NCBI GenBank assembly: GCA_027021445.1 | Contig: JALUUH010000130.1 | Location: 16,872-80,871, forward strand | Reading direction: 5' to 3' | DNA: 64,000 bases | From: Gammaproteobacteria bacterium | Lineage (GTDB): Bacteria > Pseudomonadota > Gammaproteobacteria > S012-40 | In this document: positions 18,108 to 58,386 of the stretch, piece by piece | How the letters are laid out: each line of letters opens with the position of its first letter | How positions within the stretch are numbered: the stretch's first letter is position 1 | Made by a program: the position numbers and the translations under genes | Notes under the pieces: generated by a model | What the model was told of the DNA's origin: nothing | What the model saw: the letters and a program-made list of their open reading frames with translations, nothing else | The model's database searches: none

Positions 18108-18184
<77 letters not shown>

Positions 18185-33446: not shown

Positions 33447-34205
33447 TTGATAGCAAAAGGATCTTTAACAATTCGGTTATTGAATCACTTATGGGTAGAT
33501 AGACTGCTTATCTGCTTGATTTTGCTATGCTTGTTAGTATTTAATCAAGTTAATGCTGCGGAATCTTCTACCCCATTTCCAGTGGAAACAAACGACTCAG
33601 GGATTGAATATGCAAACGATCTTCTGAGCACGCATGAGACAAATTCAGACTATCGAATTGGGCCACATGATTTATTAGAGATAGAAGTTTTCAGAGTCGA
33701 TGAATTTTCTCGAACGGTTAGGGTCAACTCTCGGGGAAATATCACATTGCCTTTGTTAGGCGTAATATCTGTCCAGAATCTTAGCAGTCAAGAATTAGAA
33801 CTCGATATTGCCAATAAGCTTACCCAGCAATTTTTACAACAGCCGCATGTAAGTGTATTTATTAAAGAATACGCCAGCCAACGGATTACGGTTGAAGGCG
33901 AAGTTAAAAAGCCAGGCATATTTGCACTAACCGGACGCACCACATTATTGCAAGCTATCGCTTTAGCTGAGGGCTTGACCGATCTTGCAGATTTAGATGA
34001 TATCCAATTATTTCGTAAGTTAAAAGATGGGCAGACAAAAAATTATGTTTTGAATATCGCTGATATCCGAACGGGGGAAGCAAAAGACCCTATTCTGAGG
34101 GGTAATGATATTATTATTGTGCATCGTGCATCGGTCTTGTCATTCATTAAACGATTTACCGATACTTTAAGAGGATTTATTTACTTTGGAAGCCCATTTA
34201 GATGA
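33447..34205 (+). CDS. outer-membrane polysaccharide export protein (Wza/OPX-like, short form)
   Basis: Signal peptide (NQVNA-AE), Poly_export motif YRIGPHDLLEIEVF, SLBB-like region. The N-terminus has no ATG or GTG, so a TTG start (33447) is required. Confidence 0.82.
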   Translation: MIAKGSLTIRLLNHLWVDRLLICLILLCLLVFNQVNAAESSTPFPVETNDSGIEYANDLLSTHETNSDYRIGPHDLLEIEVFRVDEFSRTVRVNSRGNITLPLLGVISVQNLSSQELELDIANKLTQQFLQQPHVSVFIKEYASQRITVEGEVKKPGIFALTGRTTLLQAIALAEGLTDLADLDDIQLFRKLKDGQTKNYVLNIADIRTGEAKDPILRGNDIIIVHRASVLSFIKRFTDTLRGFIYFGSPFR

Positions 34206-36448
34206 CACAGCTGTTGAATAAAGATGCTGCAAATGATGAAGATCGCAGCAATAAAAGAGTTGATCGTTCGATATACGACCGGCGAAAGCTCGCAACAGGT
34301 ATCGTTGCGAATACCTATGTACATGATGAGGACGTTAATCTAAGAGATTACTGGCATATAATTATTAATCGCCGTTGGATAATATTACTATTTCTCTTTG
34401 TGGTGTTGCTCTCTACATTAGTCGCTACTTTTTTAATGACGCCGATATATCGCGCTAGTTTGTTATTACAGATTGAACGCGAGCCTGCAAAGGTATTGGA
34501 GTTTCAAGATATTAACCCTGTGGAATCATCACGGGACAAAGATTTCTATCAAACTCAGTATGAATTATTAAAAAGTCGAAGCTTGTCAAAGCGTGTTGTT
34601 GATGAGCTAGATCTTTATTCAAACCCCATTCTTAAAAAAATAGTGATTAAAAAATCAATACTGAGTTCGATGCTGATATCCTTGTCGGGTCAAACTGCGT
34701 CTACCGAGGCGATAAACGAAGAAGAATTGTGGATAAATTATTTTTTGCAACAATTGACGATAGAGCCGGTAAAAAACTCTCGCTTAGTCCGAGTACATTT
34801 TGATTCGCCAGATGTTTCTTTGAGCGCTCAGGTTATTAATACTTACGCTGATAATTTTATAAATATGAATCTTGAGCGTCGCTTTGAAGCTTCTTCTTAC
34901 GCAAAAACATTTTTAGAAGACCGGTTAGCCCAAGTACAAGCAAAACTCGAAGAATCAGAACAAAAGTTAGTAAAATTTGCCCGAGAAAACCAGATTGTAA
35001 ATATTAGCTCTAGCCAAAATATTGACAGCCAAAGATTGACTGAAATGAATGTCGCTTTATCTAAAGCGGGTCAAGATCGAATCGATGCAGAAGCAACGTA
35101 TAATCAAACAACAAATAGTGATTTTTTTGAAGTTTTATCCAGTAAAGTTGTTCAAGAGTTAAAACATACTTTGGCGAAATTAGAAGCACAGTATTCTGAT
35201 CAACTTAAAATTTATAAACCTGCCTATCCTACAATGCAGCAGCTAAAAGGACAAATTGAAAAAATTGAAAGTAAAATTATTGAAGAAATAAACAGTATTC
35301 GGGTGGCTATCAAATCTCAGTTCCAAGCTGCACTAGAGAAAGAGAAGTTACTTAAAGCCGAATTAATTATTTTGCAAGAAAATGTACTAGGTCTGCAAGA
35401 TAGGAGTATTCAATATAATATTTTACAACGAGAAGTCCAAACAAATCGCGAATTATATCAAGGTTTATTGCAAAGGATGAAAGAAGTGGGTGTAGCAGGG
35501 GGTATAAGCTCGAATAATATATTCATCGTCGATGCTGCTGTAGAGCCTGATAAAAAACACAAACCGAAGCTGGTGATCAATATGTTACTCGCATTATTAG
35601 TTGGCTTATTGGGAGGCATTGGACTCGCGTTCTTGTTTGAGCATCTTGATGATACTTTAAAGCAAGCGGATGATTTTGAGAAACTGGTTTCGCTACCTTC
35701 GCTGGGTTTAGTACCGGTGGTGAGTGAAAATGTATCAACATCTGATTTAGGGCTGTTATCGCATTATGACTCTGGCTCAATGTTAGCCGAAGCTTATCGT
35801 TCAATCAGAACTTCATTGAGTTTTGGTACCACCAAGGGTGCTCCTACCAGTTTATTAATCACTAGTCCTGGGCCTGGAGAAGGAAAAACAACTTCGGCGC
35901 TGAATATTGCGATTACGTTTACCCAATTGAATAAACAGGTTTTGCTTATTGATGGTGATTTAAGGAATCCATCTATTCATAAACTGTTACGGATCAGGAA
36001 TAATATTGGATTGAGCAATTACCTGACATCTGAAACTGGGCCAGCCGATGTGTCTCAGGATACTGAAATTGAAGGGCTTTTTGTTATGCCTGCCGGACCC
36101 GTTTGTCCAAATCCTGCAGAACTATTATCAAGTGAAAAAATGGGAGAATTGCTCACTATTGCACAGCATAAGTTTGATTATGTCATAATAGATGGCCCTC
36201 CGGTACTCGGTCTAGCTGATGCATTAATACTCAGCAAACAGGTTGTTGCGGTGGCAATGATTGCTGAGGCAGGCAGCACCAGAACAGGCATGCTAAAAAT
36301 GAGTGTAAAGCGATTAGTTAAAGCGCACGCTAATATAATGGGCGGCATATTAACAAAAATAGACGCAAAACACGGATTGTACGGTTATTATGGACAATAT
36401 TATTCCTATGAGCGAGACCAAGAAAATAGCCCAAAGCTACCTGTGTGA
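34202..36448 (+). CDS. polysaccharide co-polymerase with BY-kinase domain (Wzc-like PCP-2a)
   Basis: Wzz N-domain with TM, long coiled periplasmic region, second TM, Walker A SPGPGEGKTT, Walker B VIIDGPP, C-terminal Tyr cluster GLYGYYGQYYSY. ATGA overlap with the upstream gene. Confidence 0.9.
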   Translation: MTQLLNKDAANDEDRSNKRVDRSIYDRRKLATGIVANTYVHDEDVNLRDYWHIIINRRWIILLFLFVVLLSTLVATFLMTPIYRASLLLQIEREPAKVLEFQDINPVESSRDKDFYQTQYELLKSRSLSKRVVDELDLYSNPILKKIVIKKSILSSMLISLSGQTASTEAINEEELWINYFLQQLTIEPVKNSRLVRVHFDSPDVSLSAQVINTYADNFINMNLERRFEASSYAKTFLEDRLAQVQAKLEESEQKLVKFARENQIVNISSSQNIDSQRLTEMNVALSKAGQDRIDAEATYNQTTNSDFFEVLSSKVVQELKHTLAKLEAQYSDQLKIYKPAYPTMQQLKGQIEKIESKIIEEINSIRVAIKSQFQAALEKEKLLKAELIILQENVLGLQDRSIQYNILQREVQTNRELYQGLLQRMKEVGVAGGISSNNIFIVDAAVEPDKKHKPKLVINMLLALLVGLLGGIGLAFLFEHLDDTLKQADDFEKLVSLPSLGLVPVVSENVSTSDLGLLSHYDSGSMLAEAYRSIRTSLSFGTTKGAPTSLLITSPGPGEGKTTSALNIAITFTQLNKQVLLIDGDLRNPSIHKLLRIRNNIGLSNYLTSETGPADVSQDTEIEGLFVMPAGPVCPNPAELLSSEKMGELLTIAQHKFDYVIIDGPPVLGLADALILSKQVVAVAMIAEAGSTRTGMLKMSVKRLVKAHANIMGGILTKIDAKHGLYGYYGQYYSYERDQENSPKLPV

Positions 36449-36493
36449 AATAAATCACAAGTATTATTCAGAACTAGTGGTACAAGATAAATA

Positions 36494-36536
36494 AGTTTTT
36501 AGTTATTTTAGTTATTTTAGTTATTTTAGTTTTTAG
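36494..36536. repeat. 9-bp tandem repeat (AGTTATTTT x3 flanked by AGTTTTT variants)
   Basis: AGTTTTT AGTTATTTT AGTTATTTT AGTTATTTT AGTTTTT AGG runs directly into the SD AGGTGA (36535-36540) of the ExeA-like gene. Confidence 0.85.
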
Positions 36537-36545
36537 GTGAGCTAA

Positions 36546-39191
36546 TTGTACGAAACACATTTTGGTTTAACAGGATCTCCATTTCGACTTAGTCCTGACC
36601 CCCGTTTCTTTTTTGGGAGTAAGGGGCATAAGCGTGCGCTTGCGTATTTACGGTATGGTTTAACCCAAAGAGAAGGATTTATCGTAGTTACGGGTTCGCC
36701 CGGAACAGGGAAGACCACGCTCGCAAGAGCCTTGTTAGATGAAGTCGCTAAGAATAAAATTATTGTTTCAGAGCTAAATACCACGCACCTCGAAGCAGAT
36801 GATGTATTGCGGATGGTTGCCGCATCATTTGGCCTAGAACACGAAAACCTAACTAAAGCTTCTTTATTAAAAAGACTTGAGCGCTTTTTTCTCACCAAGT
36901 ACCGAGCTGGTTATCATTGTTTATTAGTGGTCGATGAGTCGCAAAACCTCCCGTTCGGTTCTTTAGAAGAGCTTCGCATGCTGTCCAATTTTTATGCGGG
37001 AAAGCATGCTTTGTTACAAATATTTCTCCTGGGGCAGCAACAGTTCCGAGATGCTTTGTATGACCCAAAATTAGAACAATTGCGCCAGCGAGTCGTTGCC
37101 GCAACACATCTAGATCCATTAAATGCGAAAGAAACACGTGCCTATATTATTCACCGGTTAAATCATGTTGGATGGAAACAAAACCCCACGTTTACTCAAC
37201 GGGCTTTTGCCTATATCTATACCTTAACAAAAGGTGTTCCTAGACGTATCAATACTTTTTGTGATCGATTAATGTTATTTGCTTCTTTAGAAGATATTTC
37301 TGAGATCAATGATACACACGTAAAGGACGTAGCCAAGGAATTGATGTATGAAGTGACGTCCCATAAATCTGACTCTCCAACGAAAAAGGAAACAGATTCA
37401 GCACAGACATCTCTTGAGTTGACCACGATTGAAGAACCTACGCCTTCAGAGATTATACTTATTGAAGAAGAATTTCGACAAGAAGAAGAGCTTCTTGAAT
37501 CAGATATATCGAAAACAGAAATTGTAAAAAATGCACAGTTGTCGGCACCTGATGAAATAGATACGAATACCCAGGTTCCAGTTGTTGAAATCGTTGCGCA
37601 AAATGAAAACAAGAATGAAACTATCGATGAAGAGCACCCCACTAATACAAAACCAAAAAATAAATCTAAAAAACGCAAAGGGCAAAGCAGATCTTATGCG
37701 GATGCAACAACATTTCACAAATCAAGAAATAATACTCAAATATCACCGAGAAAAAATATTGAACATAAACCCCAGTATTTAAATCAACAACCTGGGTTCT
37801 CATTAGTTGCCTTGGCTATAGACTATTACCAAAATCCTAACGAGTATAAAGAGCTGTTACGTTCATCTTCCGTTTTACCGCCGGGTATTGCCGAACTTTT
37901 TAGAGTTGCAATGGGTAAATTACATATTGATTTAGATGATTTTGAAGGGCTTACCGATTTAACCCAAGCAGATCTAAAAGAAGCAGCTCGGCGTTTCATT
38001 AAAGAAATATTGTTATCCAATGCTTCCGATTACTATCGACGACTTGGTCTAACTAAGACCGCTAGTCAAGAGCAGATTAAAGCACACTATCAAATTATGT
38101 TTAAGCTTTTTCAACCTGATCAGGAGAAAGACTCAGCGTTATGGAACGAATCTTTTGCGATAAAAATCAATCAAGCCTATGTCTCGTTAAGAGAAAAAAC
38201 AATGCGGGATGCTTACGACTATTTTCTTGACTCTTTGGAAATTGTCGAACTTGATCATGAAATACAAACAGAAAATGAGTTTGCGGACGTTCCTCGTGTT
38301 GTAGATGCCCCCCCTTTAAAACAAGCAGTAAAATCAACGGAAAAAACTTTTGGTTTAGATAAAAAAATCAAAATGATTATAGCTGTTCTGATTTCTATTA
38401 CGTTAGGTTTGATCCTTGTATTAAACCCCTCAATACTGGTATTGAATAAGGATGATTTTTTTGATTCACCCCCTATAAACTCAATTCCAGGCCTGAAGAG
38501 TGAGGATATTCCTCTTTCCTTGACCGAAGAGCATGAAATAAACCAAATAGACAATATCCTTAATAGTGATTCAGAATTTGGAGAGCCAGCGCTGCTTGAT
38601 GATGTAACAAACCCAATGTTGTCAAGTATAGATAATTCAGGGCAAAAAATTGCTAATGAACTTGTTGTTAAAAAGACCGTTGAGTCGAAAATTGATAACA
38701 TAGTGGTGAAAAATAAAGTTGCCGCTAACAATGTAGCAAAAGGGGATCAGAAACCAAAGGTGAGTTCAGTTAAAACGTCTAATGAGCTTGATTCTAATGC
38801 GGTTATCAGAAGTAATTCCATGATATCGGAAAAAGAACTTAATTCCGTAATGAGCTTGTTTTATAAAACCTATGAAGAGGGTGATTTAAAAGAGTTTATT
38901 CGATTGTTTTACAAAAATGCGATTACCAATGATAGAAAAAGCCGGATGGGAATTGCAAAAGATTATTCCCGGCTTTTTAGCTCGACAGATAGGCGAAGCA
39001 TAAGCATCAATAATCTTGAATGGAATATCGAGGAAAACAAGGCCTCGGGAATTGGTGATTTTATTGTTAGAACGGTTAAATCTGGGGAAGGCGAGACTAA
39101 AAGCTTCGAAGGTACAATAAGGTTAGTTGTGCTAAAGGAAAGGGGAAAAATAAAATTTAAAGAAATGTATCATGCTTATAGTGAGGAATAA
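36546..39191 (+). CDS. ExeA/GspA-type AAA ATPase fused to J-like domain, TM helix and periplasmic NTF2-like domain
   Basis: N-terminus MYETHFGLTGSPF, Walker A GSPGTGKTT, Walker B LLVVDESQ. J-like segment DYYRRLGLTKTASQEQIKAHYQIMFKLFQPDQ (aa ~495-560), TM aa ~608-633, C-terminal ~120 aa SnoaL/DUF4440-like. TTG start 5 nt after AGGTGA. Confidence 0.8.
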   Translation: MYETHFGLTGSPFRLSPDPRFFFGSKGHKRALAYLRYGLTQREGFIVVTGSPGTGKTTLARALLDEVAKNKIIVSELNTTHLEADDVLRMVAASFGLEHENLTKASLLKRLERFFLTKYRAGYHCLLVVDESQNLPFGSLEELRMLSNFYAGKHALLQIFLLGQQQFRDALYDPKLEQLRQRVVAATHLDPLNAKETRAYIIHRLNHVGWKQNPTFTQRAFAYIYTLTKGVPRRINTFCDRLMLFASLEDISEINDTHVKDVAKELMYEVTSHKSDSPTKKETDSAQTSLELTTIEEPTPSEIILIEEEFRQEEELLESDISKTEIVKNAQLSAPDEIDTNTQVPVVEIVAQNENKNETIDEEHPTNTKPKNKSKKRKGQSRSYADATTFHKSRNNTQISPRKNIEHKPQYLNQQPGFSLVALAIDYYQNPNEYKELLRSSSVLPPGIAELFRVAMGKLHIDLDDFEGLTDLTQADLKEAARRFIKEILLSNASDYYRRLGLTKTASQEQIKAHYQIMFKLFQPDQEKDSALWNESFAIKINQAYVSLREKTMRDAYDYFLDSLEIVELDHEIQTENEFADVPRVVDAPPLKQAVKSTEKTFGLDKKIKMIIAVLISITLGLILVLNPSILVLNKDDFFDSPPINSIPGLKSEDIPLSLTEEHEINQIDNILNSDSEFGEPALLDDVTNPMLSSIDNSGQKIANELVVKKTVESKIDNIVVKNKVAANNVAKGDQKPKVSSVKTSNELDSNAVIRSNSMISEKELNSVMSLFYKTYEEGDLKEFIRLFYKNAITNDRKSRMGIAKDYSRLFSSTDRRSISINNLEWNIEENKASGIGDFIVRTVKSGEGETKSFEGTIRLVVLKERGKIKFKEMYHAYSEE

Positions 39192-39281: not shown

Positions 39282-40511
39282 TTGATTAGAGCCTATCAAT
39301 CAATATTATTTCTTGTGGCTTTGGGTTTGATTTGGCGCATAATTTCTCTCGGTTTTTCTGAGTATTTTTCAACGGATGTTGCAACAAAAAATATAGACAC
39401 TGTGTTGAAGTGGAATTCTTCTAACTCACAAGCATTGTTTTCTAAGAGCCTATCGCAATTATCATCTGATACGAATTTTTTTACGTCCTCTTTAACAGAA
39501 TCTATTATTAGTAATGTTTCTGATTCTCGGGGGTTGGTCTTACTAGCCGAGCACTGGGCTGAGCAAGGTGAGGTTGCAAAAGCGAATAAAGCGATGAGAT
39601 TATTAGGAGAAATGTATCCTGCTGATGCCAAAGTAAACATCGCAGTTGCTTCCTATTTTTATAAAAATAATAACATTACTGAAGCATTCCAGCATTGGTC
39701 TCAGGCAATGACAAGGTCTCATCATTTTGATACCATTTTATTTGAATTTATATATTCTCAACTTAATAATAGAGACATGCGTGCAGCTATCCTAGACGCA
39801 GCAAAACAAGCGTCGAAGTGGTGGCCGAGATTTTTTGCTTTCGCAATCAAGCAATCTAATAAGCATGATATTGAAATAGTAGATGCCTTATATGACGCAA
39901 GACTTGACGTGAAAAATTCAGTAGAGCCTGCAATTCGTAGACAATATATAAGATACTTAGTAAAACGAGAAAACTGGCAAAAAGCTTATATGGTGTGGCT
40001 GTCTGGCTTGTCGTTAACAGAGAGAGAATCACTAGGTTATTTGTATGATGGCGGATTTGAAAATGAGTTTGATCATTATGGTTTTTACTGGCATGCCTAT
40101 AAAAACAAGGCCGCTAAAATTGATCGTGTTCGATCAAATGTCGGTGCTAGTGGAAATAAAGCCTTAAAAGTCACTTTTTTAAATAAACCGACAGCGTTTC
40201 ATCATGTTCGCCAAAAAACCCTATTAAGTGCTGGACGTTATCTTTTTAAAGGCAAAGTTAAAAAAGACGGTTTAAAGAGTAATAGAGGGGTTAGTTGGCG
40301 GATATCTTGTGGAAGAAAAGCCGTTTTAGGTGAAAGCACTCGGTTTAATGGGATGGAGCATTGGCAGTCTTTTGAGGTAGAATTCAAGGTTCCTGAGCAG
40401 AATTGCAATATGCAAGATATTTGGCTAGTGACTAAAGCTAAAAATAAGTCTGATTTTAAAATAAAAGGCAGTCTCTGGTTTGATGATTTATCGATTGTGA
40501 AACTGCATTAA
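39282..40511 (+). CDS. membrane-anchored TPR-like protein with C-terminal carbohydrate-binding (CBM4_9-like) domain
   Basis: N-terminal TM (ILFLVALGLIWRIISLGF), helical repeats, C-terminal beta-rich domain starting GGFENEF and ending LWFDDLSIVKL. TTG start, no clear SD. Confidence 0.6.
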   Translation: MIRAYQSILFLVALGLIWRIISLGFSEYFSTDVATKNIDTVLKWNSSNSQALFSKSLSQLSSDTNFFTSSLTESIISNVSDSRGLVLLAEHWAEQGEVAKANKAMRLLGEMYPADAKVNIAVASYFYKNNNITEAFQHWSQAMTRSHHFDTILFEFIYSQLNNRDMRAAILDAAKQASKWWPRFFAFAIKQSNKHDIEIVDALYDARLDVKNSVEPAIRRQYIRYLVKRENWQKAYMVWLSGLSLTERESLGYLYDGGFENEFDHYGFYWHAYKNKAAKIDRVRSNVGASGNKALKVTFLNKPTAFHHVRQKTLLSAGRYLFKGKVKKDGLKSNRGVSWRISCGRKAVLGESTRFNGMEHWQSFEVEFKVPEQNCNMQDIWLVTKAKNKSDFKIKGSLWFDDLSIVKLH

Positions 40512-40541: not shown

Positions 40542-41072
40542 ATGAGAAAAAACAAATGGATAGCTTTGTTCTTAATAATACTTGGACAGGTGTCAGGGAA
40601 TGTTTTTGCAGAGCAAGTAACAGTTGGTGAAATTTCAGGCATTGTTATGCTAAACAAGGATGGAGTGTTTGTTAAAGTAGGTACTGGAATGGAGCTAGAG
40701 GTTGGCGATCAAGTATATGTGCTAGAGAACTCTTCTGCTTTATTATTACAAGGAAATGACTGTGCTGCACGATTGAACTCAAATGAATTATTTAAGCTGG
40801 ATAAATCTGATCTTTGTGCTCAGAATTCAAATACAATTAATTCGCAGGGGCCTAAACTAGTTGCTGCTATTGGGTTAGATGAGCCAACTTCTGATTCGGG
40901 TGATGCTGGCTCAAATACGGAATTACCAGAAGATCAACAAAGTGGTACCGAAGGTGGTAGAGTTTTCTCAGGACTTGCAGCGAAACTGGCTGTCCCAGCA
41001 ACATTAACTGGCGCCGTGTTATTCTCAACTATTGCTGGTGGTGGTGGTGTTGGGGCTATTAGTCCTGAATAG
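40542..41072 (+). CDS. small exported FecR-domain-like protein with hydrophobic Gly-rich C-terminus
   Basis: Signal peptide (NVFA-EQ), FecR-like pattern GIVMLNKDGVFVKVGTGMELEVGDQVYVLENSSALLL, acidic S/T/G-rich linker, C-terminal LAVPATLTGAVLFSTIAGGGGVGAISPE. SD AAGGT upstream. Confidence 0.6.
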   Translation: MRKNKWIALFLIILGQVSGNVFAEQVTVGEISGIVMLNKDGVFVKVGTGMELEVGDQVYVLENSSALLLQGNDCAARLNSNELFKLDKSDLCAQNSNTINSQGPKLVAAIGLDEPTSDSGDAGSNTELPEDQQSGTEGGRVFSGLAAKLAVPATLTGAVLFSTIAGGGGVGAISPE

Positions 41073-41162: not shown

Positions 41163-42653
41163 ATGATTAACAATGTGAATCCACCGACTAAACTGAGCCA
41201 AATTATTTTTGCTTTAGTGGTCATTTTGTTGGTCTTAGCACCATTGTTTCGCGGCGGTAATCGACCTATAGCACTGATGTTAATCGAGCTATTAGGTCTT
41301 GCTTTGTTATTATTGATGATATCCCAGCCGCAACGGATTTTAGTCATTCCCCGGTATTTGCGTTACTTTATTGTTATTTTTGTTTCGATACCGCTACTTT
41401 ACTTAATACCTATTCCTATCGATTGGTGGGCGGTACTACCGGGTAGAGAAGGCTATTACGAAGTACTTTCATTACTAGAACATCAAGACGTTTTATTTCA
41501 TTCTTTTTCAATAAACTCACTAGCAACCGAACTTTCTAACCTAGTTATAATCCCTATTGCGGCGATTTTTATGAGTTGCTTTTTCTTAAATCAAAAGCAA
41601 TTGTTTGATGTCATCAAGTTTCTTATTTTGTTAGGTGCGCTGCAGGCAATCATTGGACTCATGCAGTTTAGTACGAGCATTGACCACTGGATACGCTTTG
41701 GGATCGAGACTCACAGCACGAATGCGGTGGGAACTTATCCTAACCGCAATCATTTTTCTGGTTTACTAGAAATGATTTTACCATTAGCCATCGCTTATTG
41801 GGCGATTTGCTTTAATCATCGAATCAGTAAGGATTCTCGCCATCATTGGCGAACCAAGCTTGCTTATTTGGCAGATAAAGAATCTTTACTGATTGCAGGT
41901 GTAGGTGTTGTCATTTTGCTACTTATTTTGGGAGTAGTATTCTCGCGTTCTCGAACAGGTATAGCCCTCGTCATGTTATGTATTTTCTTATCCGCCATTT
42001 TGCTTACGCCTAAGCTAAATCGTAAGAGAGGCATTCGAGGTATAGTATTCTTAGTGACGCTTGTTCTGGTGATTGCAGCTCAGATTGGCTTAGCTCCTGT
42101 TTTCCAGCGCTTTGCTGATCAGGATCCTCTTACAGATAGTCGCTGGACGATTTATCGAGTTACCAGTGATGCCATTAGCCAATATTTTCCGCTCGGTAGT
42201 GGGCCTGGTACCTATGAATCCGTTTTGTTAGGTTTTCAACCAAATAATATCCAGCATTTTATTAATCACGCGCACAATGATTATTTAGAGTGGATGACTG
42301 AATTAGGCATTTTTTCTGTTATCCTATTTATCGGCTTTTTATCCATAATTAGTTGGAAGTTTATTCAACTGATGAGAAACAAAGACTGGGGTGATATTAA
42401 CTATATTCAAATGGGATGCGGTATCGGAATATTTTTAATGCTATTACATAGTCTTACTGACTATAATTTGAGAATACCCGCGAATGCACTTATTTTTGCA
42501 TTTTTATGTGGCGTATTTTTAAAATCCAACCATGAGCCGACAAAAAAAAGAGTAATACGAAATCGTAAGGCTAAAACATACTGTGAAAATAATCGAGAAG
42601 CAAAGCGCAGTTTAAACTCTCCGAGGAATCAACGAAATCCATTTCTTAATTAA
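41163..42653 (+). CDS. O-antigen ligase-like (Wzy_C family) polytopic membrane protein
   Basis: About 10-12 TM helices, Wzy_C signature loop HAHNDYLEWMTELGI, basic C-terminal tail. Confidence 0.8.
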   Translation: MINNVNPPTKLSQIIFALVVILLVLAPLFRGGNRPIALMLIELLGLALLLLMISQPQRILVIPRYLRYFIVIFVSIPLLYLIPIPIDWWAVLPGREGYYEVLSLLEHQDVLFHSFSINSLATELSNLVIIPIAAIFMSCFFLNQKQLFDVIKFLILLGALQAIIGLMQFSTSIDHWIRFGIETHSTNAVGTYPNRNHFSGLLEMILPLAIAYWAICFNHRISKDSRHHWRTKLAYLADKESLLIAGVGVVILLLILGVVFSRSRTGIALVMLCIFLSAILLTPKLNRKRGIRGIVFLVTLVLVIAAQIGLAPVFQRFADQDPLTDSRWTIYRVTSDAISQYFPLGSGPGTYESVLLGFQPNNIQHFINHAHNDYLEWMTELGIFSVILFIGFLSIISWKFIQLMRNKDWGDINYIQMGCGIGIFLMLLHSLTDYNLRIPANALIFAFLCGVFLKSNHEPTKKRVIRNRKAKTYCENNREAKRSLNSPRNQRNPFLN

Positions 42654-42660
42654 TTCTGGT

Positions 42661-44172
42661 TCATGATGAAACTTCATTATTATTTTTTTGTTCAAGGGTG
42701 AATTCAGCTTTATTGTCTTCGGTAACCGTTTCTAGCCGTACCGTAAATCCCCATAATCGTGTTAAGTGTTTCATAACTTCATCAACTGTTGAAGCAAGAG
42801 GTTTGCGATTATATTGCTCGTGGCGTAAAGTCAGTGCGCGATCACCACGTATATCAACATTATAAACTTGAATATTCGGCTCTTGGCTTCCTAGATTGTA
42901 CTGGTCTGCTAACAAGGTTCGTATTTGTTGGTATCCTTCGTTATTATGTATGGCCGATATTTCGATATTTCGATTTTTGTCATTATCGAGTACCGAAAAT
43001 AACTTTAAATCACGCATAACCTTAGGTGATAAATATTGAGAAATAAAACTTTCATCTTTAAAATTTTTCATCGCAAAATCCAGACTGTCAATCCAGTCTG
43101 TGTTAACTAAATCTGGAAACCATTCGGTATCTTCTGCGGTGGGATTTTCACAAATTCGTCGAATATCGCTCATCATTGAAAAGCCAAGAGAATAGGGATT
43201 AATCCCATTGTAATGAGGTGCGTCAAAAGGAGGTTGGTAAGTAACATTGCTATGTGATTTTAAAAATTCAATCATAAATCCATCGGTTACTAATCCTTCA
43301 TCATAAAGCTGATTTAATATAGTATAATGCCAAAATGTTGCCCACCCTTCATTCATTACTTTGGTTTGTTTTTGCGGATAAAAATACTGCGATATCTTTC
43401 TGACTATTCGCACTATTTCTCGTTGCCAGGATTCGAGTAAAGGCGCATTTTTTTCAATAAAATAGAGAATGTTCTCTTGCGGTTCGAGCGGAAAACGTTC
43501 TACTATTTTTTCTTCTTTTTCGGTCTCAAGAGTTGGTAATGTGCTCCATAGCTCATTGACTTGAGACTGCATATAAGCTTCTCTGTCTTTTAGCCTTGCG
43601 TGCTCCTCTTTCATGGAAACAGGGTGTGGACGCTTGTACCGATCAACTCCATAATTCATTAGTGCATGGCAAGAATCTAAAATTTCTTCAACGGCAACCT
43701 CGCCGTATCTCTTCTCGCAGTCAGCAACAAAATCTTTTGCAAAGACAAGATAGTCAATAATGGCATCAGCTGAAGTCCATTGTTTAAATAAGTAATTATT
43801 TTTGAAGAATGAATTATGTCCATACGCGGCATGTGCAATGACGAGTGCTTGCATCATCATTGAATTTTCCTCCATCAAGTATGAAATACAAGGATTGGAG
43901 TTTATAACTATTTCATAGGCTAATCCCATTTCCCCTCGACGATATTTTTTCTCGGTTTCCATGAATTGCTTTCCAAAAGACCAGTGATTATAACCTACCG
44001 GCATACCAACAGAGGAGTAAGCATCCATCATTTGCTCAGCAGTGATGACCTCAATTTGATTAGGATAGGTATCTAAACGAAAATTTTGGGCAATTCTCGA
44101 TATTTCTTTATCGTATTGTTCAATTAAGTCGAAAGTCCATTCGGAGGTCTCTGATATAGGCTTATTTTTCAT
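42661..44172 (-). CDS. SpoVR-family protein
   Basis: 503 aa, collinear with E. coli YcgB/SpoVR (ISYLMEENSMMMQALVIAHAAYGHNSFFKNN). Last gene of the prkA operon. Confidence 0.9.
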   Translation of the reverse strand: MKNKPISETSEWTFDLIEQYDKEISRIAQNFRLDTYPNQIEVITAEQMMDAYSSVGMPVGYNHWSFGKQFMETEKKYRRGEMGLAYEIVINSNPCISYLMEENSMMMQALVIAHAAYGHNSFFKNNYLFKQWTSADAIIDYLVFAKDFVADCEKRYGEVAVEEILDSCHALMNYGVDRYKRPHPVSMKEEHARLKDREAYMQSQVNELWSTLPTLETEKEEKIVERFPLEPQENILYFIEKNAPLLESWQREIVRIVRKISQYFYPQKQTKVMNEGWATFWHYTILNQLYDEGLVTDGFMIEFLKSHSNVTYQPPFDAPHYNGINPYSLGFSMMSDIRRICENPTAEDTEWFPDLVNTDWIDSLDFAMKNFKDESFISQYLSPKVMRDLKLFSVLDNDKNRNIEISAIHNNEGYQQIRTLLADQYNLGSQEPNIQVYNVDIRGDRALTLRHEQYNRKPLASTVDEVMKHLTRLWGFTVRLETVTEDNKAEFTLEQKNNNEVSS

Positions 44173-44180
44173 AGTCAGTT

Positions 44181-45449
44181 CTAGGTTTCTTTTTCTTTGC
44201 TAAAAAGTTCTCTGAAAACAGGATATATATCAGCGAGATCATGCAGTTGTTGCATGGCAAAATTAGGATAAGAAGATACTACTTTTTCATACTCGTACCA
44301 TAGGCTTTGATGGTTTTGCGGTGTAATTTCCACATAGGCAAAATATTGCACAAACGGCATAATCTCTTCTTCCAATAATTTTTTGCATAGTGGGGAGTCG
44401 TCATGCCAGTTATCACCATCTGAAGCTTGCGCAGCATAGATATTCCATTCATCTTCTAAATAGCGTTCTTTCGCTATCTTAATCATGAGATGGAGAGCGC
44501 TAGATACAACGGTTCCCCCCGTTTCACGCGAATAAAAAAAATCTTCTTCTGATACTTCTTTGGCAATAGTATGGTGCGAAATAAAGACAAGTTCTATTTT
44601 TTCATAATTACGATTAAGAAAAAGATACAGCAGAATAAAAAATCGTTTAGCCATGTCTTTCTTTTTTTGATCCATTGATCCCGATATGTCCATAAGGCAA
44701 AACATGACCGCTTGTGTCGTTGGTTTTTGAATATCAACTCTGTTGTTATAGCGCAAGTCAAAAGTATCTAGAAAGGGAATAGCATCACGCTTTCGTTTAA
44801 GCCCTTCAATTTCTTTTTCTAATAATAAAATAGCTGAATCATCCTTCAGAACTGCTCGTAAAAGCAATTCCAATTCTTTTTCTTTTTCTTTTATTTTTTT
44901 TCTATAGGGATTTCTCAAAGAAATTCTTCGAGCTTGAGCACTTCGCATGGAGCGAAGAATATTGATATTGCTGGGAACACCTGCGGTAGTGAACCCAGCC
45001 CTAGATTTACTTTTTTCGTAAACAGTTGCTAGTTTTGTTTTTACCAGATTGGGCAGTTCGAGATCCTCAAAGAAGAACTCCATGAACTCTTCTTTGCTAA
45101 GTTCGAAAACAAAATCATCCGAACCCTCCCCTTTATTATTCGCTTTATTTCCCGCTCCGTTCCCCTTTCCACCTCTTGGTCTAGGAATTTTGTCTCCTGG
45201 AACAAAATCATGGTTTCCCGGGTGAATGATATCTCTTCGCCCACCTTGTCCATGATAGATAGTAGGTTCTGAAATATCCTTGGACGGAATAGACACCTTT
45301 TCGCCACTATCAATATCAGTAATACTTCGACCAGCAATCGCATCAGTTACTGCTTTTTTAATCTGGCCTTTATAGCGCCTAATGAATCGCTGGCGATTTA
45401 CAGCGCTTTTATTTTTTCCATTGAGGCGGCGATCAACAAGTCTGTACAA
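44181..45449 (-). CDS. yeaH: YeaH/DUF444 protein (vWA-like)
   Basis: 422 aa, MIDAS-like [10 protein letters not shown], Gly/Lys-rich segment. 12 nt downstream of prkA. Confidence 0.9.
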
Positions 45450-45461
45450 AATGACATCCTT

Positions 45462-47384
45462 CTAAGAAGATTTGCGCACACGTAGATACCAATCGCAGAG
45501 CAAACGAACTTGTTTTGAGGTGTAGCCCTTATCGGACATACGCTGTAAGAAATCATCATGTTTTTTCTTATCCTCAGAAGAGGACTTAGCATTAAAGGAA
45601 ATGACAGGCAAGAGATCTTCGGTATTTGAAAACATTTTTTTCTCAATGACGTTTCTGAGTTTTTCGTAACTTGTCCATTTTGGATTTTTGCCTTTGTTTA
45701 CCGCCTTTGCTCTCAGTACGAAATTGACAATTTCATTGCGAAAATCTTTTGGATTACTAATTCCTGCGGGTTTCTCTGTTTTTTCCAACTCTTCATTGAG
45801 TGCCGCTCTACTAAATATTTCACCCGTATCGGGATCACGATAATCTTCATCTTGAATCCAATAATCCGCATAAGTAACATAGCGGTCAAAAATGTTCTGT
45901 CCATATTCAGAATAACTTTCTAAATATGCTGTTTGTATTTCTTTACCGATGAAACCGACATATTCTCTGGCAAGATAACCTTTGATAAATGACAAATAAC
46001 GTTCTTCAAGTTCAGCAGAAAATTGTTCCTGTTCTATTTGCTGTTCTAATACGTAGAGTAGATGTACAGGGTTTGCCGCTATCTCAGTGTTATCGTAGTT
46101 AAAAACGCGTGACAGGATCTTGAATGCAAATCGAGTGGATAATCCTGTCATTCCTTCATCAACGCCGGCAAAATCGGTATATTCTTGATATGATTTTGCA
46201 TGTGGGTCAGTGTCTTTTAAATTTTCACCATCATAGACCCGCATTTTAGAATATATATTCGAATTTTCTGGTTCTTTTAAGCGCGAAAGTATGGCAAATT
46301 GAGCCATCATTTCGAGTGTGTCTGGCGCACATGGCGCTGCTGATAAAGAGCTTTCGCGCAGCAGTTTGTTATAAATCTTTATTTCATCAGATACCCGTAA
46401 GCAGTAAGGAACTTTCACGATATAGATTCGATCAAGAAAAGCTTCGTTATTCTTGTTATTTTTAAATGTTTGCCATTCAGATTCATTGGAATGTGCTAAT
46501 ACAATTCCGTCGAAAGGTATCGCGCCTAATCCTTCGGTGCCTTTATAATTACTTTCTTGGGTTGCGGTTAGCAGCGGATGCAACACCTTTATCGGCGCTT
46601 TGAACATTTCAACAAACTCTAATAAACCTTGGTTTGCCAAACATAGGCCGCCCGAATAACTATAAGCATCAGGATCATCTTGGGCGAACTCTTCGAGCTT
46701 TCGAATATCTACTTTGCCTACCAAGCTAGAGATGTCTTGATTGTTTTCATCACCGGGTTCGGTTTTTGCGATACCCGCTTGTAATAAGATGGATGGTTTG
46801 AGTTTAACAATTTTAAATTTGGTAATATCTCCATTAAACTCATGTAATCGTTTAACCGCCCACGGTGACATGATGCCATTGAGATATCGACGAGGAATTC
46901 CATAATCTTCTTCAAGAATGTCGCCATCTTCTTCAGCAGAAAACAACCCTAAAGGCGATTCATTGACTGGTGAACCTTTGATGGCATAAAAAGGCATTAC
47001 TTCCATTAATGCTTTTAGTTTTTCTGCCAGTGAAGACTTTCCTCCACCAACCGGGCCTAATAAATATAATATTTGTTTTTTCTCTTCTAATCCTTGTGCC
47101 GAGTGTTTGAAATAAGAAACTATTTTTTCTATCGCGTCCTCCATGCCGTAAAAATCCTTAAATGCAGGATATACTCTGACCATTCGATTAGAGAATAATC
47201 GACTTAATCGTGGATCTTTTCGGGTATCGAGCATTTCTGGTTCGCCGATGGCTGCTAACATTCGTTCGGCGGCGGTGGCGTATGCAGAAACATCTGACTT
47301 GCAAATAGAAAGGTATTCTTGAATGGAAATTTCTTCTTCTTTTGATGCGTCAAAGCGTGTTTGAAAGTGATTGAATATGCTCAC
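45462..47384 (-). CDS. prkA: PrkA/YeaG serine protein kinase (AAA-like N-domain)
   Basis: 640 aa, Walker A GPVGGGKSS, conserved PrkA core. GTG start 8 nt after GGGAGG. Confidence 0.93.
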   Translation of the reverse strand: MSIFNHFQTRFDASKEEEISIQEYLSICKSDVSAYATAAERMLAAIGEPEMLDTRKDPRLSRLFSNRMVRVYPAFKDFYGMEDAIEKIVSYFKHSAQGLEEKKQILYLLGPVGGGKSSLAEKLKALMEVMPFYAIKGSPVNESPLGLFSAEEDGDILEEDYGIPRRYLNGIMSPWAVKRLHEFNGDITKFKIVKLKPSILLQAGIAKTEPGDENNQDISSLVGKVDIRKLEEFAQDDPDAYSYSGGLCLANQGLLEFVEMFKAPIKVLHPLLTATQESNYKGTEGLGAIPFDGIVLAHSNESEWQTFKNNKNNEAFLDRIYIVKVPYCLRVSDEIKIYNKLLRESSLSAAPCAPDTLEMMAQFAILSRLKEPENSNIYSKMRVYDGENLKDTDPHAKSYQEYTDFAGVDEGMTGLSTRFAFKILSRVFNYDNTEIAANPVHLLYVLEQQIEQEQFSAELEERYLSFIKGYLAREYVGFIGKEIQTAYLESYSEYGQNIFDRYVTYADYWIQDEDYRDPDTGEIFSRAALNEELEKTEKPAGISNPKDFRNEIVNFVLRAKAVNKGKNPKWTSYEKLRNVIEKKMFSNTEDLLPVISFNAKSSSEDKKKHDDFLQRMSDKGYTSKQVRLLCDWYLRVRKSS

Positions 47385-47885: not shown

Positions 47886-48416
47886 GTGAAGCTTCCGTTG
47901 CAAATAACAACACGAAAACTTTCCTTATCGAAATACGCATCCGATATCATCAAGCAAAAAGTCAGTAAACTTGAAACTTTTTATGACAAAATTATCGGCT
48001 GTCGTGTAATGGTAGAGGCGCCACATAAGCATAAGAATCAAGGTTCATTATATAATGTCAGTATCATAATTAGCGTTCCCGGTTCAGAGTTGATCGTCAA
48101 ACGAGAGCCTGACCAAGACATATATATCGCTATTAGGGATGCATTTGATGCTGCAAGACGACAAATACAGAACTTTGCGCGTAAAAGACGAGGAGAAATA
48201 AAAACCCACAGTACGGTGCCGATCGCGACAATAACAGAGATCTACCCACATATGGGATATGGTTTTATGGTGACTAATGATGGTCGACAAATTTATTTTC
48301 ACAGTAATAGCTTAGTAAATCATGATATTGAGCAGATAGAAATTGGTGCTTCGGTACGGTTTGCCGAAAAACAAGGAATGGATGGCCCACAAGCGAGTAC
48401 TGTTGCCTTAGTTTAA
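47886..48416 (+). CDS. HPF/RaiA (ribosomal S30AE) domain fused to a cold-shock-like domain
   Basis: The N-terminal ~105 aa fit the HPF pattern (ISVPGSELIVKREPDQDIYIAIRDAFDAARRQI). The C-terminal ~65 aa are CSD-like (GYGFMVTNDGRQIYFHSNSL...GASVRFAEKQGMDGPQASTV). GTG start 6 nt after AGGAGA. Confidence 0.75.
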   Translation: MKLPLQITTRKLSLSKYASDIIKQKVSKLETFYDKIIGCRVMVEAPHKHKNQGSLYNVSIIISVPGSELIVKREPDQDIYIAIRDAFDAARRQIQNFARKRRGEIKTHSTVPIATITEIYPHMGYGFMVTNDGRQIYFHSNSLVNHDIEQIEIGASVRFAEKQGMDGPQASTVALV

Positions 48417-55764: not shown

Positions 55765-58386
55765 TTGAGCGCAATGACTTTATACAATGAAGAACTAGCA
55801 GCTATTAGAAGGCTTGTTTGCAATATGGACGATTCTGGGTGGCAATTTTCTCCCGTATTACTTTACCGTTTGGGTCTAAGTAGTTGTATTACCATCCTTA
55901 GTTCATTGCTAAAAAAAGTTGTTTTTTTCGTTGCTGTGCTATTATTTTCTTTGTCCTATTCGTTTTCAGCCTCTGCTCTAGAGCTTGGAAATATGCATGT
56001 TAGTAGTTTACTCCAGCAAAAATTAGCGGCGACCATAGCCATTGAGGATGCTGACGATTCAGAACTAGCGCAACTCGAAGTAACTTTAGCAGCGGAAAGC
56101 ATTTTTAAAAGATTAGGTGTTGAACGCACAGAGCAACTTAAAAATCTCGTTTTTTCTGTTAAAAAAAATGATAAAGAACAAAGCTATATTGAAGTAACAT
56201 CAACCCATCCCATAGAATCAGAATTTTTGAATTTTCTTATCGAAGTGAACTGGCCTGGTGGACATTTACTCAGAGAGTTCACCGCATTGTTGGATCAACC
56301 GATTTTTCTTGATGAAGAACCTGAACAAGTTTCAGCGCCTGAGGCCCGCCATGTATTAGAAACCCAAGAACCTGCAATAAATCGGGATAAAAAGACAAGC
56401 GTTATACCGATGCCTGGGATCGAAAATCAAAACTCCCGAAATAAAGATTTCCAGGTATTGTACGCACCTGTTAAGAAAAATGAATCGCTGTGGAAAATCG
56501 CCGATAAAACAATGCCTGAAGGCGTGACGATAGAGCAAATGATTTATGCATTATATCTGGAAAACCCAGAAGCTTTTTATCGTCAGAATATGAACAACCT
56601 AAAAGAAGGTTCCGTTCTTAGGTTAAATAGCCGGGCGAGTATTACCGCAATTTCTCCAGACGATGCGCAGGCCGTTATGGCAAGACATCATAAAATATGG
56701 ATGAAGGAAAAACAAGAACGGCAAAGTAAAAGAGCCGCGTCGACAGGAGCCGCCATCGGTCTCAAAAATGGGAATAGTGATCCTTCATTGGCTCGTGCAC
56801 GGTTTGATCTCAATAATGAAGCACGTTTAGCATTGGTAACACCGGAGGGAGAGCCGTTTTCCGAATCCAGTACTGACAATGTCGCAAACCGTAACGACCT
56901 CAGGTCTACATTAAGTAATATGCGTCAAGAGCAGGCATTAGCTAATGAGACATTAGAAGCTGCTAAAAAAGAAAATGAAGTGTTACAAAATCGCTTGCAA
57001 TCCGTTGTAGGGCAAGTAAATTCTCTACGCAATCTCATTCAGTTAAAAGACGAGCAACTCAGACTGCTGCAAGATAACAGTGATGGTAAAATAACAGACG
57101 AAATGCTCGAGCTTGCGCTGGCATCAAGCAAAGAAAAATTATCGCGACTCAATCCTCCCGAAAAAGAAAAACCCCTGGATTCTCTCTGGAACGATCCTTT
57201 AGTTTTCGGTACAGGCTTCGGAATTATTGTATTACTCATCTCTCTTGTAATGCTCTTAACCAGGAATAGAAAAAAACGGCAAACATCTATAAACCAACCT
57301 GAAGCAATCAACGAAATAGAAGACGACACGCAGATAGTCGAGCGTGTATTCACCGATAGCGATCGATCGCATATTTCAGATGTCATTGTTACGCCAGCCA
57401 CAGCGGTTAACACCGAGACATCAGAAGAGAATACTCAAAACCTATTGAAAGACGATGAGATAAGCGCTGAGCCTAAATCATCAGAAGTCTTTGCTGGATC
57501 AATTGATCCAGCATCAGAAGCCGATGTTTATATTGCTTATGGTAAATATGACAAAGCAGAAGCAGTGGTAATGGAGGCAATTTTAAGTAATCCCGACCAA
57601 CAGCAGTTGAAGCTTAAACTCTTAGAAGTTTATGCCGCCAGTGCTAATAAAGAGTCATTTATCGCCTCAGCGGAAGAACTCTATGCGGCATTAGCAGGTG
57701 ATACAGCGCATGAATTATGGAAAAAAGCCCAGTTTTTGGCGCAAAATATATGTTCTGATCACCCCTTATTTAGTGACGCTGAAAATCATTTCGATGTCGC
57801 AGAACACATAGCAGTTGCTAACAATGAAGTTATTGAGAATAAAACAACGGAGAATGAAATAACGACGAGTATCGATGATATTTCTACCCCTGAATTTGAT
57901 ATACCTGAAAACAAGGTTCCCCCAATAGATAAGCCTAGTAATATCATCCCAGCCGTGACCAACACAATTGTTGAGGAGCAAGCAGATACCCCCCTTTCTA
58001 CTTCAGAGATTTCTCCTGCTTCTACTACCATTAATGCTTCACCCACCATGCCTGATAAAACAATGACGGAAGAAGAGCGGGCAATAAAAGAAGATATGTT
58101 AAGTTTAGCGGAATCTTTTTCCGAAGCGGAGCAAAAGAATAACTCAAGCCAACATGACGGTATCGCAGACGTTTTTTCAGATCTAGGGTATCAGCATTCT
58201 CAAGATTCTGACGACGCTTCTATGTTCCTGCTTGCAGATGAAATAGGGACTAAGTTGGATCTGGCGCGTGCTTACATCGAAATGGGCGACAAAGCAGGTG
58301 CAAAAGAGTTGCTAAGTGAAGTTGAAATTGAAGGAGATACGCTGCAAAAAACCGAAGCTAAGAAACTAATGGCACTAACGAATTAA
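55765..58386 (+). CDS. fimV: FimV-like peptidoglycan-binding pilus assembly protein (start uncertain)
   Basis: Signal/TM region then LELGNMHVSSLLQQKLAATIAIED, LysM-like segment (VKKNESLWKIADK...LKEGSVLRL), central TM, acidic repeats, C-terminal FimV motif LDLARAYIEMGDKAGAKELL. Likely starts are ATG 55825 or TTG 55906. Confidence 0.85.
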   Translation: MSAMTLYNEELAAIRRLVCNMDDSGWQFSPVLLYRLGLSSCITILSSLLKKVVFFVAVLLFSLSYSFSASALELGNMHVSSLLQQKLAATIAIEDADDSELAQLEVTLAAESIFKRLGVERTEQLKNLVFSVKKNDKEQSYIEVTSTHPIESEFLNFLIEVNWPGGHLLREFTALLDQPIFLDEEPEQVSAPEARHVLETQEPAINRDKKTSVIPMPGIENQNSRNKDFQVLYAPVKKNESLWKIADKTMPEGVTIEQMIYALYLENPEAFYRQNMNNLKEGSVLRLNSRASITAISPDDAQAVMARHHKIWMKEKQERQSKRAASTGAAIGLKNGNSDPSLARARFDLNNEARLALVTPEGEPFSESSTDNVANRNDLRSTLSNMRQEQALANETLEAAKKENEVLQNRLQSVVGQVNSLRNLIQLKDEQLRLLQDNSDGKITDEMLELALASSKEKLSRLNPPEKEKPLDSLWNDPLVFGTGFGIIVLLISLVMLLTRNRKKRQTSINQPEAINEIEDDTQIVERVFTDSDRSHISDVIVTPATAVNTETSEENTQNLLKDDEISAEPKSSEVFAGSIDPASEADVYIAYGKYDKAEAVVMEAILSNPDQQQLKLKLLEVYAASANKESFIASAEELYAALAGDTAHELWKKAQFLAQNICSDHPLFSDAENHFDVAEHIAVANNEVIENKTTENEITTSIDDISTPEFDIPENKVPPIDKPSNIIPAVTNTIVEEQADTPLSTSEISPASTTINASPTMPDKTMTEEERAIKEDMLSLAESFSEAEQKNNSSQHDGIADVFSDLGYQHSQDSDDASMFLLADEIGTKLDLARAYIEMGDKAGAKELLSEVEIEGDTLQKTEAKKLMALTN

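Follow-up and report, generated by a model that had tools for sequence, protein, structure and literature searches.

We describe a gene for a membrane protein in which an ATPase module is joined to a J-domain fold that has no catalytic His. The gene is located in a 64,000-nt stretch of contig JALUUH010000130.1 from a Gammaproteobacteria bacterium (assembly GCA_027021445.1), referred to below as the window, and codes for an 881-aa protein. From the N-terminus, the protein carries an AAA ATPase module, a linker, a J-like module, a transmembrane helix and an NTF2-like domain predicted to be periplasmic. The His-Pro-Asp (HPD) tripeptide of J domains reads QPD in this protein. We observed that the loss of His accompanied the fusion without exception: all 121 AAA-bearing descendants lack the catalytic His, while HPD was present in 100 of 126 related proteins without an AAA domain. 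Our preferred interpretation, to which we assign a probability of about one half, is that the protein would be an accessory factor of a Wzx/Wzy polysaccharide export machine with a Class-3 outer-membrane polysaccharide export (OPX) protein, and that a built-in ATPase would have replaced the recruitment of DnaK.

The first homologue search produced 1,103 matches, and the best 120 of them, all 581–1,431 aa long, were studied. A J-like stretch was found in 119 of these 120 proteins and the HPD motif in none. When the AAA-bearing proteins were aligned to a profile of the J module (alignment A1, made of 29 homologous segments spanning aa 426–572), the HPD position was occupied by QPD in 32 proteins, by RQD in 44, by RHD in 11 and by other tripeptides in 34, with RQE (eight cases), QPE, QTE, QPV, QPA and QPK among the latter. 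The nearest homologues, with 70% identity, had QPD as well. A second search started from a divergent seed brought back 117 of the same 120 proteins and added no HPD-bearing fused protein; therefore, the fused family was close to exhaustively sampled at 90% clustering.

The CAA codon of the window gene is separated from a His codon (CAT or CAC) by one transversion in the third position. The absence of His at such a short mutational distance, with only ~30–40% identity in the J module, points to selection rather than drift. The H-to-Q replacement in HPD generally abolishes Hsp70 stimulation (review PMC13254874), and in the membrane J-protein DjlA this replacement, H233Q, caused a loss of function (PMC11709261). 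The window protein, being without HPD, thus ranks as a type IV J-domain protein (JDP), or pseudo-JDP, outside the functional JDPs.

The assignment of aa 495–558 to a true J-domain fold was confirmed by profile scores and by the predicted structure. The Pfam DnaJ model scored 40.4 bits on this segment within the whole protein and 47.6 bits on the isolated segment (gathering score 27.8), and the A1 profile matched J domains of the PDB with E = 3e-15. In the HMMER alignment the family consensus “LfQPDqe” was placed over “YHPDVNK” of Thermus DnaJ2, with Q exactly on the His of HPD; the CAA codon at 38112–38114 was read directly from the sequence, as the sequence-only reading of the window had said. 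The AlphaFold2 model made from A1 had a pLDDT of 89.5 and a pTM of 0.82. With the J module as a Foldseek query, the top matches listed were J or J-like domains, at a root-mean-square deviation of ~2 Å and a template modelling (TM) score, normalized by target, of up to 0.85. The ~70 residues preceding the J core form three additional helices with no counterpart in the PDB. Apart from the His position, the J-like module is among the best conserved parts of the protein, DYYRRLG, INQAY and the R..YD of helix III being invariant or nearly so.

The C-terminal domain was confirmed as NTF2-like by its modelled structure, three helices on a curved antiparallel sheet. The AlphaFold2 model made from 40 C-terminal domains (alignment A3) reached a pLDDT of 96.4 with the element order H-H-E-H-E-E-E-E, and Foldseek gave NTF2-like matches with TM scores of 0.85–0.89 (E ~2e-8). 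On the sequence level the domain stayed below the Pfam threshold (SnoaL_4, 13.6 bits versus 24, E = 0.069); PF12680, PF14534 or PF13577 were matched in several homologues, and the A3 profile also reached ketosteroid isomerase and the N-terminal region of PBP5/PBP2a. In some relatives the NTF2-like domain is doubled in tandem. Both folds had been proposed from the sequence alone, and the models, Foldseek and the profiles assigned neither domain to a different fold. The proposed order of domains also held, with boundaries right within a few residues.

The same domain plan was detected by the homologue search in more than 100 independent database clusters, which places this architecture far beyond chance. 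The AAA module scored 349.3 bits against TIGR03015 (curated cut-off 324.5, positions 1–268 of the 269 in the profile), and Pfam AAA_22 (PF13401) scored 90.5 bits at aa 42–171. Since profile positions 1–268 of TIGR03015 align with residues 1–268 of the protein, the TTG start is well placed. A search against PDB sequences produced local P-loop matches only (p97, KaiC, RFC), and a close solved relative was not found. With both Walker motifs intact, the ATPase is probably active. The variable linker that follows, aa 269–425, is likely to be the fusion joint.

The segment aa 608–626 was the sole hydrophobic transmembrane candidate in a Kyte-Doolittle scan of the protein. A transmembrane helix between the J and NTF2-like parts was present in 111 of 112 fused and in 95 of 96 stand-alone proteins. 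In both groups more positive charge was found N-terminal of the helix than after it, which fits the N-in/C-out topology. We conclude that the protein is a bitopic inner-membrane protein, with a predicted topology that leaves the AAA and J modules in the cytoplasm and the flexible linker with the NTF2-like domain in the periplasm.

For the relatives without an AAA domain, the A1 profile was searched against 1.84 billion representatives; this produced 44 matches at E ≤ 1e-30 and 2,226 at E ≤ 1e-10. A majority of the best 150 matches were proteins of ~160–830 aa without an AAA domain, in which the 147-residue module began at about residue 12. The stand-alone plan consists of the extended J module, one transmembrane helix, a long low-complexity linker and a C-terminal NTF2-like domain. 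Examples that carry names are the “J domain-containing protein” of Halioglobus maricola (P0197) and the “DnaJ domain-containing protein” of Thioalkalicoccus limnaeus (P0249); the exact sequences of P0249 and of the window protein have no database record. A few of the AAA-less proteins lacking HPD were N-terminally truncated fragments of fused proteins.

The window protein has the same extended J module, transmembrane helix, long linker and C-terminal NTF2-like domain as the stand-alone family, and its gene is in the same slot, with Wzc on one side and a gene of ~430 codons on the other. The stand-alone proteins differ in that the J module is N-terminal, HPD is intact and the AAA module is absent. 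In all three stand-alone loci examined (L016, the complete genome of H. maricola, L017 and L018) the HPD gene stands between Wzc and a gene for a ~430-aa protein (423–436 aa), with Wzy_C next. The end of Wzc was at most 25 nt from the start of the J gene in these loci; therefore, an AAA domain cannot hide upstream. The Wza, Wzc, 409-aa and Wzy_C proteins of the window were homologous to their counterparts in the stand-alone loci with 26–48% identity (tblastn). It is thus well supported that a membrane J-protein with the order helical and J parts, transmembrane helix, NTF2-like domain existed first and gained an AAA module at its N-terminus by fusion; with HPD, such a protein still occurs alone at this place of the cluster in other Gammaproteobacteria. 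The sequence-only reading had seen an ExeA with an exchanged periplasmic domain and an inserted J domain; this has to be given up, since the whole block pre-exists in a stand-alone form with HPD.

A neighbor-joining tree was built for the J module and NTF2-like domain of 214 sequences. A stand-alone clade (n = 77, 76 with HPD) was set apart from a clade with all of the fused proteins, 59 of R-type and 63 of Q-type. Nested in the fused clade were 13 stand-alone proteins whose motifs are degenerate (YQD, CLD, FSD and others; for example, P0127, P0133, P0136 and P0246), which may have arisen by a secondary loss or split of the AAA module. HPD is the universal state among functional J domains, so that the non-His state is the derived one. 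The tree fits, without proving it, a single fusion followed by the loss of His and by later occasional losses of AAA. Some relatives have tandem J modules, the first of which is degenerate while the second is also without HPD. Tandem J modules or tandem NTF2-like domains were noted in P0126, P0128, P0167, P0177, P0156 and L013 (12833–13672).

With respect to genomic context, a locus search with a narrower alignment in genome contigs gave six loci, all from metagenome-assembled genomes of uncultured Gammaproteobacteria/Ectothiorhodospiraceae. We found a conserved block of five to six genes in the order Class-3 Wza, Wzc, ATPase-J, ~410-aa protein, in some cases a small secreted protein, and Wzy_C. 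This block was present with Q-type fused genes in the window, in its 70% relative (L001/L002) and in its 40% relative (L011). The R-type fused genes, which are longer, were followed in three out of three loci (L013, L014 and L015) by a ~90-aa gene, YjbH, a ~950-aa multi-SLBB OPX and Wzz; therefore, the link to polysaccharide export spans three sub-families. The flanks of the Q-type fused genes in L005, L006, L007, L009, L010 and L012 were without cluster genes. The association with OPX and polysaccharide co-polymerase (PCP) genes thus recurs in three sub-families, and gene adjacency is not obligatory. Coordinates of the window features are given in Table 1.

Table 1. Features of the ATPase-J gene and of its gene cluster in the window (positions are counted from the first nucleotide of the window)
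Feature	Position	Strand	Remarks
Whole ATPase-J gene	36546..39191	+	881 aa, TTG start; AAA – linker – pseudo-J – transmembrane helix – NTF2-like; single open reading frame in >100 homologues
Shine-Dalgarno-like AGGTGA	36535..36540	+	5 nt before the TTG start; read from sequence
AAA ATPase module, TIGR03015/AAA_22 type, ExeA/GspA-like	36546..37349	+	aa 1–268; profile scores
Walker A, GSPGTGKT	36693..36716	+	aa 50–57; intact in 119/121 fused homologues
Walker B, LLVVDESQ	36921..36944	+	aa 126–133; intact in 119/121 fused homologues
Low-complexity linker, acidic then basic	37350..37820	+	aa 269–425; no Pfam match; length and sequence variable among homologues
Extended J module	37821..38261	+	aa 426–572; three family-specific helices packed against the J-domain fold (AlphaFold2 model)
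J-domain core	38028..38219	+	aa 495–558; Pfam DnaJ, PDB profile, Foldseek
QPD tripeptide at HPD position	38112..38120	+	aa 523–525; codons CAA CCT GAT, read directly
Single transmembrane helix, N-in/C-out (predicted)	38367..38423	+	aa 608–626; Kyte-Doolittle 2.75
Periplasmic low-complexity linker (predicted location)	38424..38822	+	aa 627–759; no Pfam match
Periplasmic NTF2-like domain (predicted location)	38823..39188	+	aa 760–881; AlphaFold2, Foldseek; in 119/120 homologues
Short Wza-like OPX, first cluster gene	33447..34205	+	252 aa, Poly_export + SLBB; Class-3 type
Wzc-like PCP with tyrosine autokinase domain	34202..36448	+	748 aa
409-aa partner	39282..40511	+	N-terminal transmembrane helix, no Pfam family; directly downstream of the J gene
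Secreted protein	40542..41072	+	176 aa; signal peptide, Gly-rich hydrophobic tail ending ...GGGGVGAISPE
Wzy_C membrane protein (O-antigen-ligase/polymerase-like), last cluster gene	41163..42653	+	496 aa; PF04932, 73.5 bits

The 409-aa partner is homologous to proteins of 405–436 aa in L011, L016, L017 and L018 and follows the J gene in fused as well as stand-alone clusters. In L011 (12667–13884), L016 (11461–12756) and L017 (11632–12942) the stop of the J gene is overlapped by the start of the partner gene, an arrangement suggestive of translational coupling and of two proteins that are direct partners. Past the transmembrane helix, the partner has a stretch that by eye is TPR-like and helix-rich, followed by a beta-rich C-terminus; the sole TPR result was a weak TIGR02917 match. 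Short OPX proteins of Class 3, as defined in PMC12819527, need additional partners such as a beta-barrel porin to make a translocon (PMC12819527). There was no obvious porin gene in the window cluster, although its 252-aa OPX is without an outer-membrane-spanning part. The 409-aa neighbour was considered as the porin and rejected on inspection of its sequence alone (N-terminal transmembrane anchor, helix-rich by eye). The 176-aa secreted protein was kept in L001 and L011 and weakly elsewhere, and its tail is not of the PEP-CTERM kind.

Several other features were observed around the gene. The gap from the Wzc stop (36448) to the ribosome-binding site of the ATPase-J gene is occupied by AT-rich tandem units, about four copies of a TTTTAGTTA-like unit of 9–10 nt at 36491–36535. 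In the window, L007, L010 and L011, an operon of SpoVR, DUF444/YeaH and PrkA (42661–47384, minus strand, in the window) is found next to the cluster or to the ATPase-J gene itself, and this adjacency is kept in L007 and L010 though Wza, Wzc and Wzy_C are absent there. A gene for a small Rce1-like/CPBP membrane protease (145–154 aa) directly precedes the cluster, or a fused gene that stands without it, in L010 (8976–9422) and L011 (5845–6282), with further probable genes of this kind in L005 (3136–3582) and L007 (7428–7892); it is not at that position in the window.

At larger distances, the window gene at 47886–48416 combines a Ribosomal_S30AE hibernation-factor domain with a C-terminal cold-shock domain, a pairing also seen in L001 and L011 that differs from the usual architecture of long hibernation-promoting factors. 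An 873-aa FimV-like protein (FimV_N; 55765–58386) is encoded downstream of leuB and asd, as is usual in Gammaproteobacteria. The GC content of the window is 39.7%. The Rfam scan of the window gave one tRNA only (18108–18181), far from the ATPase-J gene. A defence-system role was considered and rejected because PADLOC gave no meaningful match.

Among known systems, the claim of an ExeA/GspA-type AAA protein stood in part. MshM of the MSHA pili belongs with this type as well. The window protein resembles ExeA/GspA in its N-terminal cytoplasmic AAA_22-type P-loop ATPase, single transmembrane helix and large periplasmic C-terminal part, and its gene likewise sits with an envelope-spanning export machine having an outer-membrane channel (PMC4098917). 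In ExeA, a cytoplasmic ATPase, one transmembrane helix and a periplasmic binding domain promote the assembly of the outer-membrane secretin (PMC4098917). Some sources label homologues of the window protein as “general secretion pathway protein A”. The likeness of ATPase and topology was thus upheld; on the other hand, the best match of the module was TIGR03015, and the remaining hallmarks were missing. No PG_binding was among the matches listed for aa 567–881 even at E ≤ 10, ExeA's peptidoglycan-binding domain being replaced by the NTF2-like domain. No ExeB/GspB or type II secretion family was detected among the window open reading frames scanned, the neighbours being Wza, Wzc, the 409-aa protein and Wzy_C. 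In addition, the cytoplasmic part has a J module of ~150 aa that ExeA does not have.

The likeness to TIGR03015 is that the AAA module exceeds the curated cut-off from end to end and that the locus is of the exopolysaccharide kind, having Wza- and Wzc-like genes. The difference is that the model spans aa 1–268 only, with the other 613 residues (J-like, transmembrane and NTF2-like parts) outside the family definition. The NCBI name “XrtA-associated ATPase” is attached to the long homologues P0037, P0062, P0065, P0084, P0092, P0113 and P0114. Neither an exosortase family among the scanned open reading frames nor a PEP-CTERM-like tail in a C-terminal motif scan was found in the window or in eight related loci; therefore, the name is unsupported here. 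It probably stems from the match of TIGR03015 to the first ~270 residues only.

Two further comparisons concern the J domain. DjlA of E. coli is likewise a membrane-tethered protein with a cytoplasmic J domain tied to capsule production: its overproduction induces the colanic-acid capsule via Rcs, which needs DnaK, the J domain and membrane anchoring, and the QPD mutant is inactive (PMC11709261). DjlA differs in its N-terminal transmembrane helix, TerB-like domain and C-terminal HPD J domain, has neither a periplasmic domain nor an ATPase, and acts on signalling proteins rather than from inside an export cluster. The pseudo-JDPs Pam16/Tim16 and DnaJB13 share with the window protein a clear J fold with a non-functional HPD that is retained by selection, and Pam16 is also attached to a membrane translocation machine (PMC13254874). 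Both are eukaryotic and Pam16 pairs with the true J-protein Pam18, whereas the window pseudo-J is bacterial, carries the classical loss-of-function allele QPD and is covalently joined to a non-Hsp70 ATPase. In the searchable literature we found neither an ExeA-type ATPase described as carrying a J domain, as the sequence-only reading had supposed, nor a J-protein described among the core genes of Wza-Wzc clusters. The family is populous in sequence databases, under automated names only.

On the preferred interpretation, DnaK would be recruited and activated by the stand-alone form on the cytoplasmic side of the machine that assembles and exports the polysaccharide. In the fused form, the nucleotide-driven step would come from the built-in ATPase, just as complex formation in secretin assembly is driven by the ATPase of ExeA. 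The J fold of the fused form would no longer stimulate Hsp70 and would be kept as an interaction module, with the AAA domain or a client in the cytoplasm (for example, the kinase domain of Wzc) as its partner. The NTF2-like domain may play the role that the peptidoglycan-binding domain has in ExeA, with the 409-aa protein, the periplasmic parts of Wzc or Wza, or the polymer as its candidate contact. Overall, the protein would use ATP to assemble or gate a Class-3 OPX translocon. We place more confidence in the loss of canonical DnaK stimulation together with the fusion than in a functional replacement of DnaK by the AAA module.

Several observations weigh against this interpretation. The neighbor-joining tree that unites all fused proteins in one clade lacks support values, and its internal branches are very short; the contrast between His and non-His forms is not phylogenetically independent and may reflect only one or two events. 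Six of ~9 distinct Q-type fused loci had no cluster genes in the available flanks, and the partners of the fused protein may therefore be encoded at other loci, or its role may be wider. That the J-like module is strongly conserved apart from His would also fit DnaK binding without stimulation. Finally, no ExeA-type ATPase is known to carry out Hsp70-like protein remodelling, and “replacement” is used here only as an analogy.

The retention of the J module may alternatively mean that the QPD domain still binds an Hsp70 (DnaK or the divergent HscC) without stimulating it, as a tether or competitor by which the chaperone would be concentrated or held back at the export machine, and that the AAA module has a separate function. 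The near-invariant motifs around the lost His agree with this possibility, as do the QPE and QTE variants present in the family; options of this kind are listed for pseudo-JDPs in PMC13254874, which also reports that HPE is functional with HscC. However, H-to-Q abolished the functional interaction with DnaK in every cited J-protein tested, DjlA included, and in the sister branch RQD replaces both His and Pro, degrading the loop further. The exact coincidence of the loss of His with the gain of an ATPase would also be left unexplained, and we regard the tether as unlikely.

It is similarly doubtful that the J-like fold serves only as a structural or oligomerisation scaffold in an analogue of ExeA, with the J ancestry functionally irrelevant and the NTF2-like domain clearing a way for the OPX and the outer-membrane channel by its binding to peptidoglycan or polymer. 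The topology and the ATPase type do match ExeA, and NTF2-like domains are known as non-catalytic binding or oligomerisation modules of envelope proteins (the N-terminal region of PBP5/PBP2a, Bd1075). Nevertheless, the stand-alone relatives keep HPD in ~80% of cases, from which it follows that the J domain was functional in the ancestor, and the conservation of the J-like surface after the fusion exceeds what a passive spacer would need.

A still less probable view is that the protein has no specific part in polysaccharide export and is a factor of general use in the envelope or under stress, its position near Wza/Wzc and SpoVR-YeaH-PrkA being inherited synteny. Fused genes with no cluster gene nearby (L010, L012 and L007) agree with it, and so do the genes of L007 and L010 that still adjoin SpoVR/DUF444/PrkA without Wza, Wzc or Wzy_C. 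On the other hand, the stand-alone HPD, Q-type fused and R-type fused genes each stand beside OPX and PCP genes in differing gene orders, and the AAA module is of the type of exopolysaccharide loci. Finally, we give almost no credence to QPD being a sequencing error or a very recent inactivation (as the sequence-only reading had allowed for), or to the reading frame being an assembly artefact joining two genes: CAA is indeed a single third-position change away from CAT/CAC, but all 121 AAA-bearing proteins, from independent assemblies, have Q or, in the sister branch, R as a fixed state, which refutes a recent lesion, the single-frame architecture is conserved, and the 70%-identity homologues share QPD.

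Returning to the built-in ATPase as a substitute for DnaK recruitment, a more specific and rather doubtful extension is that the J fold was re-wired from Hsp70 to another class of ATPases, so that the pseudo-J would regulate or couple the attached AAA ATPase in cis. If this were true, bacteria would differ in what serves one and the same export client, DnaK in some and a dedicated AAA ATPase in others. The adaptor would have been conserved through a natural “motor swap”, and this would be the first J fold working with a non-Hsp70 ATPase.

Whether altered-HPD J domains are accidents or selected “remains enigmatic” according to a 2026 review (PMC13254874). Here, a textbook loss-of-function allele, QPD, is fixed clade-wide in a bacterial family, while its nearest relatives, found in the same genomic slot, have retained HPD; apart from this, the two forms differ only in the covalently attached ATPase. 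This natural paired contrast, HPD without an ATPase versus QPD or RQD with one, is clean and genetically tractable and bears on why “dead” J domains persist. In terms of annotation, the names “XrtA-associated ATPase” and “AAA family ATPase” cover the first third of the protein only, and the former implies a link to exosortase. The assembly and energetics of Class-3-OPX clusters are only now being worked out (PMC12819527). To the Wzx/Wzy clusters of this class the finding adds an unrecognised conserved component that reaches from the cytoplasm to the periplasm, either as a J-protein that would recruit DnaK or as its ATPase-bearing version.

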